Positions 33,687 to 40,943 are shown, counted from the first letter of the stretch. The stretch: 64,000 nt of DNA from Promethearchaeati archaeon SRVP18_Atabeyarchaeia-1 (GCA_037308085.1 CP147779.1:96001-160000); one strand, 5' to 3'. The notes: generated by a model not told the origin, from the letters alone. Program-made: numbers and translations.

Positions 33687-34745
33687 TCATAATTGGCTAA
33701 GTAGTTCCCTCAGATATATCTTGTATCTTCCCAGTTTTCCTCCGTAGTTTCCGGCGGAGATCTTGATGACGCCATCCATCTCGTGGACGCTCTTCATTCC
33801 CTTTTTGAGGGCTTTCTTCACGGCATCCAAGGAGACTCCGTCGACCACGATTTCTGGGATTGATTTCACACCGATAGGCACTTTCGTCCTATTCTTGAGC
33901 TTATCCCGTAGAGTTGAGCAGTAGAGATAGTTTGTCGGAGGACCGATTGGCGGGTAATCTTCTGCAGCTGAACCTGAAGGGCAGACGTAGAATGGTGTAA
34001 TTACACCCTCAACTTGCTTTATTGCTTCCAATACTTTTCTGCCAGCTTTTCGACCTGTCTCCACGCTGTCACAGAGCAGCCACAGGTTGCCGCCCGAGAC
34101 GCCGATGCCACATCTTAGGTATCGATCCGTCTTGAAGTCATAGCCCATCATCAGGGGAACGTTGATCGTCTCTCTGCCGTTCTCAGAGGAGAACCATTCA
34201 TAGCCTCCGCCACATTTACCTATCCGCTCTTCAGTATCTATGGCAAGATTGCCCTCGCTTGTCTCCCCTCCTGGATGGGGTAAAGCGAATACTCTGGTTG
34301 TGCTGACTGAGAGAACGTCTTGGCGAATTCTGATGGACATCTCCTTATAGAACCTCTCCAATTGCCTTGGGATGTCTTCGTTTTCATCGAATCTTCCCCA
34401 AAGCTGAACTACCACTCCTTCACGGTTGTCTGGAGTTTGCTTTCTCGTCAGCCATCTCTCTATCCCGCCCTCGATTCTTCCAACGACAACCGAAGGAGTT
34501 GCTGTGCACCTATATGCCGCTAATCGCAACTCGTCGTATTCTATCCCGGGGTTACTCCTATCGCTTGCCTTCAGACCCCTTTCACCGGTGATTAATAGCC
34601 GCACGTACAACCCAGAAAAAGCTTCTGCAAAAGTATCTTCAACATTCTCGTATCCTCCCTTCTCAGCGGGCACTTGGAAGATCTTCCTCCGGATTTTGGG
34701 CATGGCTGGACCAATAGTCTGGCGTATTTGGCCTGGGTTTGGCAA
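33687..34745 (-). CDS. Formylmethanofuran:H4MPT formyltransferase-like protein (Ftr paralog)
   Basis: VEDTFAEAF, EGGIE..TPD.R.G, RIRQ.VL...TT.VF, GVSGGNL, EIVVDG, ISAGNYGGKLG; TATPSVVVGRIEGG instead of canonical TSVIxCxxEAG; alternative start 34703. Confidence 0.9.
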   Translation of the reverse strand: MPNPGQIRQTIGPAMPKIRRKIFQVPAEKGGYENVEDTFAEAFSGLYVRLLITGERGLKASDRSNPGIEYDELRLAAYRCTATPSVVVGRIEGGIERWLTRKQTPDNREGVVVQLWGRFDENEDIPRQLERFYKEMSIRIRQDVLSVSTTRVFALPHPGGETSEGNLAIDTEERIGKCGGGYEWFSSENGRETINVPLMMGYDFKTDRYLRCGIGVSGGNLWLLCDSVETGRKAGRKVLEAIKQVEGVITPFYVCPSGSAAEDYPPIGPPTNYLYCSTLRDKLKNRTKVPIGVKSIPEIVVDGVSLDAVKKALKKGMKSVHEMDGVIKISAGNYGGKLGRYKIYLRELLSQL

Positions 34746-34758
34746 GAAGCGTCAGGGA

Positions 34759-36165
34759 TCAGGGACGATCCTCTAGCTTAGGGTATGTCTTCCATTTTGA
34801 CTGTACCTTCTTGATCATTTCCTGCGTATTCCTCCCTATGTCGCTCCTGTGCCTTAGGGCACCCTTTACATATCGGGTGGCGCCTTCCGCAATACTCTCA
34901 GCCTCTTCAAGAGACTCGGATATTCCGAGGACTGCCAAGGCTCTGGACTTCGTTGTAAGAATACCTTCATCACTCATGTTTACACTTGCCCAATAGTACC
35001 TCGCACCTGTATTCCTCATCCCTTCCTGATCCACCTCGACTCGTTGATTCTCTTTCGGATTCTCTGGATAGCCTTCAGGGACAAGGTACTTGCACACGGT
35101 TGCCCTATTGGCGAACCTCAGCTTCTTGGCACTCAGTGTTTCGTCGACCATGCTCCAATAGATTTCGATTGGATCATCATTTTCGAGTATCGGCAATATA
35201 TTGATAGCTTCTGAGTCACCGAGTCGCACGTTCGCTTCGGTGAGTATTGTTGTTGGTCTCCGCTTAGCCGGGCTTATCCCTTTCATCATCTGAGCGTATA
35301 GAAATCCGTGGTATCGCTCTCCAGTTTCCTTTGCTAGCGCAGAAGTGATGTTCAGTACCATCTGGGCAGTTTCTTCATACTCTCTTCTTGAGAAAAATGG
35401 CATAAGCTGGTCGCTTTGACTGTAGCTACCCATGCCGCCTGTGTTTGGACCTTCGTTGTCTTCGTAGGCTCGTTTATAATCTTGCACACATGGTGCCGGT
35501 ACGACGCTCTTGCCATCGGTGAATGTCTGTATGGTTACTTCAAGTGGGTACAGTATTTTCTCCTCGATTACTACTGATTGGAGTCCTCCTGGCTTGTCTT
35601 TCAGTATGGACTCGACATATTCCTTTGTTTCGTCGGAGTCCGTGAGTTGTTCGCCCGTAAGTTTCACTCCTTTTCCCCCTGTCAGCCCCGAAGGTTTTAT
35701 TGCCAGAGGGATCCCCTTCTTATTCATTTCTTCAATGTAACTGAAAGCTTCAACCGGGCTCGTGAATGAACGGTACTCTGGATAATACAGGATGTTGTGT
35801 TTCCTCATTAGGTCTCTGCAGTAGCTCTTATCTCCTTCTATCATTGCACATGCTTTGACCGGACCGACGCACGGGATCTTGTTTCTTGCCAAAGCGTCGG
35901 CCACGCCAGATACCAAGGGATCCTCGGGTCCGATAACCGCTATGTCGATTCGCTTCTCCACGGCATAGTCAGCGACTACCTGTGGGCTGCTGGTTGCACC
36001 CTTTGCCCCGATCCTGTAGTTTCCTTTGCTGCCACAGAGTTTTGCGATGCTCGGGTTCAACTTGTCGGAAATAACGTAAAGTATTGTTGAAGGACTTGTC
36101 GTTACGCTTTCAGCAATTGCCGCCTCTCTTCCTCCAGATCCGACTAGCAGTACCTTTGTCGCCAA
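34759..36165 (-). CDS. purD: Phosphoribosylamine-glycine ligase
   Basis: VLLVGSGGRE, IGPEDPL, GKGV, QDYKR...GPNTGGMG, HRSDIG. Confidence 0.95.
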   Translation of the reverse strand: MATKVLLVGSGGREAAIAESVTTSPSTILYVISDKLNPSIAKLCGSKGNYRIGAKGATSSPQVVADYAVEKRIDIAVIGPEDPLVSGVADALARNKIPCVGPVKACAMIEGDKSYCRDLMRKHNILYYPEYRSFTSPVEAFSYIEEMNKKGIPLAIKPSGLTGGKGVKLTGEQLTDSDETKEYVESILKDKPGGLQSVVIEEKILYPLEVTIQTFTDGKSVVPAPCVQDYKRAYEDNEGPNTGGMGSYSQSDQLMPFFSRREYEETAQMVLNITSALAKETGERYHGFLYAQMMKGISPAKRRPTTILTEANVRLGDSEAINILPILENDDPIEIYWSMVDETLSAKKLRFANRATVCKYLVPEGYPENPKENQRVEVDQEGMRNTGARYYWASVNMSDEGILTTKSRALAVLGISESLEEAESIAEGATRYVKGALRHRSDIGRNTQEMIKKVQSKWKTYPKLEDRP

Positions 36166-36262
36166 TATCCCTCACCCTCAACTTGCCGCTGTTGCACGCA
36201 TCTTCTGAATTCGCGCGCCGCTCAGCAGACTGAAGCGATAGTATTTTTCTGGCTCGGGCAAT

Positions 36263-39926: not shown

Positions 39927-39929
39927 CTT

Positions 39930-40640
39930 CTACTGGTCACCTCCCGCAAACTCTATCATTGAGCGGAGTATTGATAGCCCGTCCTCGGTTCCGTTTGGGC
40001 TGAGAATTCGTTCTGACGATCTTTCTGGATGTGGCATTAGTCCAGCAACATTTCCCTCAGTATTACAGATCCCCGCAATATTGTCCAGTGCGCCGTTGGG
40101 GTTTGATTCATCTGTCGTCTCGCCTGACTTGTCCACATATTTGAAAACAATCTGGTTGTTCCTCTTCATCTCTTGCATGGCTTCTTCGTCAATGAAGTAC
40201 CTGCCTTCGCCGTGGGCGATGGGCAGGGAAAGTATCGCTCCTTTGGTCAGGCTTCGCGTGAGAGGGGACTTGTTGTTCTCCACCCGCAAATATATCCACT
40301 TGCATACAAAAGTCAGGCATGAGTTTCTTAGTAGCGCACCAGGAAGCAGACCAGATTCAACAAGGATCTGGAACCCGTTGCAGATGCCAAGAACAGGTTT
40401 GCCGTCTGCTGCCATTCGCCTTATGCTCTTCAATGCTGGGCTGAATGCTGCTATGATCCCTGCGCGTAGGTGGTCCCCATAAGAGAACCCGCCAGGCAGA
40501 ATGGCAATATCATAGTCATGGTCATTAAATTCCTTGTGCCAAATTAAGCGAGCATCTACCCTCAAAACATCTTTCAAAACATGAAGGGTGTCGTACCTGC
40601 AGTTTGAACCCGGGAAGTCTATGATAGCGACTTTGAGCAT
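39930..40640 (-). CDS. purQ: FGAM synthase glutaminase PurQ
   Basis: FPGSNC, GGFSYGD, GICNGFQ, MPHPER. Confidence 0.97.
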   Translation of the reverse strand: MLKVAIIDFPGSNCRYDTLHVLKDVLRVDARLIWHKEFNDHDYDIAILPGGFSYGDHLRAGIIAAFSPALKSIRRMAADGKPVLGICNGFQILVESGLLPGALLRNSCLTFVCKWIYLRVENNKSPLTRSLTKGAILSLPIAHGEGRYFIDEEAMQEMKRNNQIVFKYVDKSGETTDESNPNGALDNIAGICNTEGNVAGLMPHPERSSERILSPNGTEDGLSILRSMIEFAGGDQ

Positions 40641-40676
40641 CTGTACCCCCCGAAGTCCTTTTCCAATTCTTCTGAC

Positions 40677-40943
40677 CTACTCTTCAACTCCCTTGACGTG
40701 AATTGAGCACGTGTGCGCCACGGGATTGAATATCCTGAGGTCGTTGCACATTCTGAAGATGATGCTCTTCGCGTCGTCTTCTGATCGTGCTTCAACCTTG
40801 GCCCTAAGAAGTTTTGCCGCTCTGATGGACTTCACTTCGCCGTATCCGCCTTTGTTTACGAGATCTCTCCAGATTGTTTCTCCTTCTGGATCCCTCGCGG
40901 CGGGTTTGTTCTCAATCACGATTTCAACCGTGAAAAGAGACAT
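40677..40943 (-). CDS. purS: FGAM synthase subunit PurS
   Basis: DPEG, NPV; directly upstream of purQ. Confidence 0.93.
   Translation of the reverse strand: MSLFTVEIVIENKPAARDPEGETIWRDLVNKGGYGEVKSIRAAKLLRAKVEARSEDDAKSIIFRMCNDLRIFNPVAHTCSIHVKGVEE

Follow-up and report, generated by a model that had tools for sequence, protein, structure and literature searches.

We analysed a window of 64,000 nucleotides from Promethearchaeati archaeon SRVP18_Atabeyarchaeia-1 (GCA_037308085.1 CP147779.1:96001-160000), in which a purine biosynthesis operon, purS-purQ-purL-purF-purD, is followed by a gene encoding a divergent protein of the formylmethanofuran:tetrahydromethanopterin formyltransferase (Ftr) family, here named FtrX (33687-34673, minus strand; 328 amino acids, P0002; PF01913 94.3 bits, PF02741 144.9 bits). 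Taken together, the data lean towards FtrX being a tetrahydromethanopterin (H4MPT)- or methanofuran-dependent glycinamide ribonucleotide (GAR) formyltransferase, which would make it a candidate for step 3 of purine synthesis. We would give an even chance to the wider proposal that the FtrX clade adds a third class of GAR transformylase to those of PurN and PurT, to neither of which it is related, and that this class would take purine C8 straight from N5-formyl-H4MPT or formyl-methanofuran. Judged by its sequence, FtrX is a specialised offshoot of the Ftr family. A comparison of ~490 archaeal genomes makes it the strongest candidate so far for the enzyme whose absence has been on record since 2011.

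The five pur genes and the Ftr-family open reading frame (ORF) are all located on the minus strand, with intergenic gaps of 36, 3, 4 and 97 nt between purS, purQ, purL, purF and purD, and a profile search placed each of the five pur genes above its curated NCBIfam cut-off. The first gene of the operon, purS (40677-40943, -; PF02700 62.8 bits; TIGR00302 45 bits, cut-off 39), encodes a subunit of formylglycinamidine ribonucleotide (FGAM) synthase. It is followed by purQ, encoding the glutaminase subunit of the same enzyme (39930-40640, -; TIGR01737 310 bits, cut-off 178), by purL, encoding FGAM synthase subunit II, the consumer of formylglycinamide ribonucleotide (FGAR) (37707-39926, -; TIGR01736 930 bits, cut-off 526), by the amidophosphoribosyltransferase gene purF (36263-37702, -; TIGR01134 456 bits, cut-off 350) and by purD, encoding the GAR synthetase that produces GAR (34759-36165, -; TIGR00877 358 bits, cut-off 288; GARS_N/A/C domains). 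These profile matches agree with the initial annotation of the window, which had described a pur operon and an Ftr-family gene on one strand. The distances from the purD stop that it gave for two possible starts of FtrX are exact (13 nt for the TTG at 34745 and 55 nt for the ATG at 34703). The start on which homologues and the gene call of the database agree is the GTG at 34673, which lies 85 nt past the purD stop. A GGAGG sequence is found 12 nt upstream of this GTG, and the frame is open upstream as far as the TTG at 34745 (ORF 33687-34745).

The genome consists of a single contig of 2,808,651 bp and is 96.9% complete. No match to TIGR00639 or PF00551, the profiles for PurN, was found anywhere in these 2,808,651 bp; the best whole-genome match to TIGR01142, the profile for PurT, reached only 38.7 bits (cut-off 502) and fell in a CarB-sized ORF, and PurH had no match in the whole genome. 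The lack of purN and purT, initially noticed for the window, thus extends to the entire genome by profile search. The purine genes recovered were purF, purD, purS, purQ, purL, purM, purE, purC and purB, together with purP; PurP, purM and purE form a second pur cluster at C1:22-28 kb, with purC and purB located elsewhere. Because PurP is present, the second formylation of the pathway is accounted for. GAR formylation is the sole step of the pathway without a gene in this genome. A role of FtrX as a substitute for PurH or PurP in the formylation of 5-aminoimidazole-4-carboxamide ribonucleotide was also considered and was rejected as its main role, PurP being encoded beside purM.

To follow the distribution of these enzymes, PurD, PurN, PurT and FtrX were counted in the same evenly drawn samples of 151 Asgard, 171 Halobacteriota and 171 Thermoproteota genomes (~490), of which 381 were PurD-positive. 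FtrX was called by a gap in the scores of the A2 hidden Markov model (at least 283 bits for FtrX, at most 263 bits for canonical Ftr), and divergent PurT-like proteins of Thermoproteota were counted as PurT. FtrX was present in 97 of the 124 PurD-positive genomes without PurN or PurT (78%), as compared with 16 of the 257 genomes with PurN or PurT (6%). The 90 PurD-positive Asgard genomes comprised 17 with FtrX only, 10 with FtrX and PurN, 56 with PurN or PurT only and 7 with none of the three; the corresponding numbers were 64, 6, 88 and 10 for the 168 PurD-positive Halobacteriota and 16, 0, 97 and 10 for the 123 PurD-positive Thermoproteota. An anti-correlation of the clade with purN and purT, one of the checks suggested in the initial annotation, is therefore observed in three phyla. 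With Fisher values of 3e-28, 1e-13 and 1e-6 the association looks stronger than it is, because related genomes are not independent. When the Asgard genomes were considered at the family level, five families were FtrX-only and one had both FtrX and PurN.

FtrX and PurT were never found together (0/115 FtrX genomes), PurT or a PurT-like protein being present in 59 genomes, and PurD accompanied FtrX in 113 of the 115. Canonical Ftr does not follow PurD: in the Asgard genus g13, Ftr was found in 15/15 genomes and PurD in 0/15. Likewise, the 13 Halobacteriota genomes with PurT only all carry canonical Ftr and none of them carries FtrX. All of the named Bathyarchaeia (6/6), Borrarchaeum yapensis and Mnemosynella have FtrX in a pur cluster and are without PurN and PurT. 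As a separate observation, many Thermoproteota encode beside purD a PurT-like ATP-grasp protein of ~460 amino acids which scores 206-330 bits against TIGR01142 (cut-off 502; e.g. G417:C39:3166-3849 and G385:C29:4736-5923) and which probably represents a distinct subfamily.

The neighbourhoods of FtrX were scanned in one genome per species, which gave 80 loci, mostly from Bathyarchaeia. purD was located at 5 kb or less from FtrX in 61 of the 80 loci, and in 60 of the 68 with at least 4 kb of upstream sequence, while some pur gene was present in 66. We recognised at least five distinct arrangements of FtrX with pur genes, in Atabeyarchaeia, Borrarchaeum, Bathyarchaeia, Mnemosynella and two further archaea. 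The order purSQLFD-FtrX-M20 characterises the Asgard family to which the present genome belongs. In Borrarchaeum and the Asgard family f15 the order is purF-purD-HAD-like-FtrX-PfkB-purL-purQ-purM, where HAD-like denotes a haloacid dehalogenase (HAD)-like protein and PfkB a kinase of the PfkB type; Bathyarchaeia show purF-purD-HAD-like-FtrX-PfkB facing purQ-purL-purM on the opposite strand, Mnemosynella shows purD-HAD-like-FtrX-PfkB, and the two further archaea have HAD-like-FtrX beside purD and purF. The recurrent proximity of the clade to purD, which had also been put forward for verification, was thus found in several gene orders. In Bathyarchaeia, the purD located before the HAD-like/FtrX/PfkB trio (e.g. 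G342:C44:81601-82944) scored 220-270 bits, below the TIGR00877 cut-off of 288, and PurD is therefore diverged in these genomes. Two Halobacteriota genomes of ~1.0 Mb each (G228 and G244; loci L109 and L113) display the order HAD-like-PfkB-FtrX and also encode PurN.

The HAD-like and PfkB genes adjoin FtrX in 68-71 of the 80 loci, and the trio is also adjacent in a separate subclade. For the HAD-like protein, a match was obtained to the Atlas cluster that bears the name EhaR (score 0.98, TM 0.92), and the first motif of its family, D-x-E-G-P, is unusual. Within the window, the neighbours of FtrX are purD and an M20 gene, and the adjacency to HAD-like and PfkB genes was not encountered. The two genes are found side by side at C1:27129-29276 (L122:8130-10277, -), beside purE, purM and purP and ~100 kb from FtrX. 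The HAD-like protein encoded there (391 amino acids) is divergent (E = 3e-7 against that of Borrarchaeum), with DVEGP and not DxDxT as its first motif. The pair represents the detached EhaR/EhaT-like partners of FtrX. All three genes of the trio are pur-associated in this genome, and only FtrX fills the slot between the maker of GAR and the consumer of FGAR. In two Halobacteriota loci (L102:8746-9911 and L105:9016-10062), FtrX is flanked by stretches of ~40 amino acids that resemble the C-terminus of the HAD-like protein, and in L102 a further stretch is similar to the PfkB protein at its N-terminus; an earlier trio may have left these traces.

At the sequence level, FtrX scored below both NCBIfam cut-offs for Ftr (250.6 vs 297 bits for TIGR03119 and 171.5 vs 292.6 bits for NF002554). 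It matched Ftr domains only, with no homology to the PurN (Formyl_trans_N) or PurT (ATP-grasp) families, and was 30-32% identical to Ftr proteins of solved structure. An AlphaFold2 model of FtrX (pLDDT 89) gave TM-scores of 0.79 (model-normalised) and 0.86-0.87 (target-normalised) against 1FTR, 1M5S and 1M5H, and the protein is accordingly predicted to adopt the two-lobed Ftr fold. In an Ftr tree built from 50%-identity representatives, the canonical Ftr group, which includes both other paralogs of this genome, was starred at 99. The FtrX core was starred at 100 and was placed within a wider group of 25 rows (SH-aLRT 85) including shorter, Bathyarchaeia-type sequences. The tree, another analysis suggested by the initial annotation, thus assigned FtrX to a clade apart from canonical Ftr.

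The non-canonical motif TATPSVVVGRIEGG to which that annotation had drawn attention is indeed present in FtrX and is a signature of the clade, the A2 consensus being TPSxVVGRxEAGIE vs xxSxIxCPAEAGIE in the canonical paralogs of the same genome. In the alignment, Glu246 of M. barkeri Ftr (own count) is matched by E274 of P0002, a position that is invariant in FtrX and canonical sequences; this catalytic residue is Glu245 in M. kandleri Ftr. The oxyanion-stabilising Glu of FhcD is Glu252 (PMC6926001). The contrast in sequence conservation between the two groups revealed residues conserved specifically in the FtrX clade, namely R66, Q90, W92, R117, C154 (Phe in canonical Ftr), W198, C231, G244 and P245, and FtrX carries two insertions relative to canonical Ftr. 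The ribose phosphate might be bound by the two Arg residues that the clade has gained.

Three Ftr-family genes, FtrX among them, are carried by the genome. The best-scoring paralog ends a cluster composed of mch, fwdC, fwdA ... fwdD, fwdB, mtd and ftr at C1:851-865 kb (gene at ~C1:864 kb), and a canonical Ftr representative from elsewhere is found in mtd-ftr-fwdDBAC. Given the presence of the mch-fwd-mtd-ftr cluster, the organism can therefore make formyl-methanofuran and N5-formyl-H4MPT. The third paralog (C1:215894-216772; L002:1489-2388, +; 299 amino acids) groups with P0161, P0153 and P0247 inside the canonical supergroup. A search for a separate canonical ftr, also envisaged initially, thus recovered one in the one-carbon cluster and another paralog besides, and the possibility that FtrX is the only, or the canonical, Ftr of this genome was rejected. 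Each computational check put forward in the initial annotation had the outcome foreseen there.

Ftr-type catalysis is, to our knowledge, the only known enzymology for formyl transfer between N5 of H4MPT and a primary amine. In canonical Ftr and bacterial FhcD, a buried protonated Glu stabilises the oxyanion during the exchange of the formyl group between H4MPT, at N5, and methanofuran, at its primary amine, and FhcD and the Ftr of sulfate reducers run in the direction from H4MPT to the amine (PMC6926001). We propose that FtrX would use the same Glu chemistry, with the primary amine of GAR, the product of PurD, occupying the place of methanofuran. GAR would then be formylated from N5-formyl-H4MPT, or possibly from formyl-methanofuran, and the resulting FGAR would pass to PurSQL. 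By analogy with the Ftr reaction, this transfer would be near equilibrium and would be drawn forward by the ATP-dependent PurL step. Purine C8 would in this way derive directly from the archaeal one-carbon pathway, with neither folate nor free formate being involved. The data directly show the order of the genes, the family and clade to which FtrX belongs, its conserved catalytic Glu, the pathway gap and the phyletic and neighbourhood patterns; the substrate and the donor of FtrX, and whether it needs the HAD-like and PfkB partners, are what we infer from them.

Since 2011 at the latest, model archaea such as Methanothermobacter, Archaeoglobus and Methanopyrus have had no gene assigned to step 3 of the textbook purine pathway, and the same has more lately applied to ANME-1, a group of anaerobic methanotrophic archaea. 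Brown et al. (2011, PMC3261824) pointed out the gap in Archaeoglobi, Methanobacteriales and M. kandleri (this paper writes Methanomicrobiales once, yet the species that it lists are Methanobacteriales), and ANME-1 was added by Chadwick et al. (2022, PMC9012536). The latter work also names ANME-1, ANME-2a/2b, Archaeoglobales, M. kandleri and Methanothermobacter, for the most part the groups with the gap, as carriers of an uncharacterised Ftr2, and leaves the gap and Ftr2 unconnected. The statement, in the initial annotation, that several H4MPT-using archaea lack PurN and PurT and possess a second Ftr is in print (PMC3261824, PMC9012536). Because the Halobacteriota sample shows just two score classes, FtrX most likely corresponds to the Ftr2 of those groups. 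Our literature search found no paper assigning an Ftr paralog to GAR formylation. According to work cited in PMC3261824, C8 in M. stadtmanae derives from C2 of acetate even in the presence of formate, which fits a pterin-bound donor rather than free formate.

If FtrX does formylate GAR, a third GAR transformylase of independent origin would join PurN and PurT, and FtrX would be the first known biosynthetic enzyme to draw formyl groups from the methanopterin/methanofuran one-carbon pathway. The step-3 gap would be closed in Archaeoglobi, ANME-1, Methanobacteriales, Methanopyrus, Bathyarchaeia and several Asgard lineages, and a rationale would be provided for the orphan EhaR/S/T genes, EhaS included. 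The annotation of thousands of genes now named after the methanogenesis enzyme Ftr would have to be corrected, a mislabelling which would at present skew the metabolic reconstructions of Asgard, Bathyarchaeia and ANME genomes.

Several points weigh against this assignment. The counts reported above treat related genomes as independent and thereby include shared ancestry. Linkage to pur genes is not universal, FtrX being largely apart from them in Methanoliparum, Methanolliviera and the Asgard families f2, f9, f20 and f27, and showing little linkage in some Halobacteriota genomes that we take to be Archaeoglobi-type. The 16 genomes with both FtrX and PurN correspond to 10 of the 13 FtrX genomes of f9, which are all 10 of the Asgard genomes with this combination, to 4/4 Methanoliparia and to 2 others. 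FtrX is unlinked to pur genes in f9 as well as in Methanoliparum and Methanolliviera, the latter two of which have PurN, and it may do something else in f9 and Methanoliparia. Moreover, 27 PurD-positive genomes have none of FtrX, PurN and PurT, and reflect either another solution to GAR formylation or incomplete assemblies. The presence of HAD-like and PfkB genes on the flanks of FtrX in most relatives, which did not figure in the initial annotation, is not accounted for by formyl transfer carried out by a single enzyme. In the literature, formyl-H4MPT is not believed to be the formyl donor in purine synthesis (PMC3261824), and the EhaR/S/T trio has been reported to be co-transcribed with the Eha hydrogenase in Methanothermobacter (PMC3087415).

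This co-transcription of the Methanothermobacter trio with Eha, which feeds the one-carbon pathway (PMC3087415), would suit an anabolic isoenzyme that performs ordinary Ftr chemistry and is located in pur operons only as a supplier of one-carbon units, the true GAR formyltransferase being another, unrecognised protein. The full Ftr fold and the catalytic Glu of FtrX are in agreement with such a function, as is the finding that FtrX is the sole Ftr-family match in some genomes (e.g. G166, G188, G242 and G342). We nevertheless regard this explanation as unlikely, since a canonical Ftr in the one-carbon cluster and a third paralog are already available in the genome studied here, FtrX reaches neither of the equivalog cut-offs and shows conserved residues of its own, and neither the full exclusion of PurT (0/115) nor the close tracking of PurD (113/115) would be expected from it. 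It appears very unlikely to us that FtrX has a role unrelated to purines, for instance in the metabolism of methanopterin or methanofuran or in the formylation of another amine. The complementarity with PurN would in that case only mirror the use of H4MPT vs folate: as PurN depends on folate, genomes without it are those of organisms that use H4MPT alone, which are the carriers of Ftr-family genes, and the unlinked FtrX genes that coexist with PurN in f9 and Methanoliparia point in the same direction. FtrX is however missing from H4MPT users with PurT, among them the 13 PurT-only Halobacteriota genomes, all of which have canonical Ftr. In addition, FtrX tracks PurD and not canonical Ftr, and its linkage to purD recurs across several gene orders.

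The conservation of the trio raises the further possibility, improbable in our estimation, that FtrX acts in purine synthesis only within a three-protein module with the EhaR-like HAD and EhaT-like PfkB proteins, on a non-standard intermediate or donor, for instance a ribosyl-glycinamide with a different phosphorylation or some activated formyl species, or by releasing formate for PurP, perhaps together with the M20 hydrolase. Adjacency of the three genes in 68-71 of 80 loci and again in a separate subclade, the close match of the HAD-like protein to the EhaR cluster, its unusual D-x-E-G-P motif, the position of the HAD-like/PfkB pair of this genome beside purE, purM and purP and the presence of the M20 deacylase gene after FtrX are all consistent with a module of this kind. 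In the Atabeyarchaeia lineage itself, by contrast, FtrX is ~100 kb from the pair and stands alone in the purD-purL slot, and it is also found alone in the Asgard families f2, f20 and f27 and in Archaeoglobi-type genomes. No formyl-transfer chemistry that would need both a kinase and a phosphatase-like protein is evident.

The gene following FtrX encodes an M20 deacylase of the ArgE/DapE family (32377-33666, -; TIGR01910 268.7 bits, cut-off 217.6). It starts 20 nt downstream of FtrX and probably belongs to the same transcript. Its end overlaps by 23 nt with the gene for a ChrB_C-domain protein (31689-32399, -; PF09828 158.9 bits). These two genes keep their positions after FtrX in L010 and L011, two loci of the same Asgard family, and a weaker M20 homologue was observed upstream of purD in one Bathyarchaeota locus (L056). 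The M20 protein may hydrolyse an amide in connection with the formyl chemistry, or it may have no relation to it and belong to a lysine/arginine pathway. On the other side of the operon, hdrC-hdrB (41371-42829, -) are located directly upstream of purS, and the order hdrC-hdrB-purS... is conserved in L010 and L011. The organism is an Asgard archaeon related closely to Candidatus Atabeyarchaeum deiterrae, whose FtrX is 74% identical to the present one, and L011 has the same gene order. Upstream of purS, no Rfam family scored above its threshold and no riboswitch family matched; the sole match, in the long hdrB-purS intergenic region, is a weak one to the C/D-box snoRNA-like family RF00278 (40994-41064, -; 19.3 bits, gathering score 42).

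Compared with known GAR transformylases, FtrX would share with PurN (EC 2.1.2.2) its product FGAR, its position in the pathway and a pterin-bound formyl donor, and the two have largely complementary distributions. PurN differs by an unrelated fold and family and by its need for folate as 10-formyl-tetrahydrofolate, and it co-occurs with FtrX in 16 of the 115 genomes. PurT provides archaea with a folate-independent route to FGAR, as proposed here for FtrX, but is an ATP-grasp enzyme that uses free formate via formyl phosphate, whereas FtrX has no nucleotide-binding domain. The EhaR-EhaS-EhaT proteins of Methanothermobacter are encoded by the last genes of the eha operon, where EhaS originally carried the annotation of a second Ftr and EhaT that of a ribokinase (PMC3087415). 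Judging by the name of the Atlas cluster and by this report, the trio in the pur clusters of Bathyarchaeia, Borrarchaeum and Mnemosynella is the EhaR/S/T trio; in the present genome FtrX is, in contrast, detached from the other two, with no eha genes nearby. FhcD, from the bacterial formyltransferase/hydrolase complex (PDB 6S6Y), physiologically moves a formyl group from N5-formyl-H4MPT to a primary amine, which is the direction proposed for FtrX (PMC6926001). It is 28% identical to FtrX and acts within FhcABCD on bound methylofuran, whereas no fhcABC-like genes are found beside FtrX. With Ftr itself (EC 2.3.1.101; PDB 1FTR/2FHJ, 1M5H and 1M5S), FtrX has in common the fold, both Pfam domains and the oxyanion-stabilising Glu; it differs in being encoded in a pur operon and not with fwd, mch and mtd, and in its proposed acceptor, GAR instead of methanofuran. 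From this resemblance, FtrX probably performs the same kind of amine-to-amine formyl transfer as Ftr.

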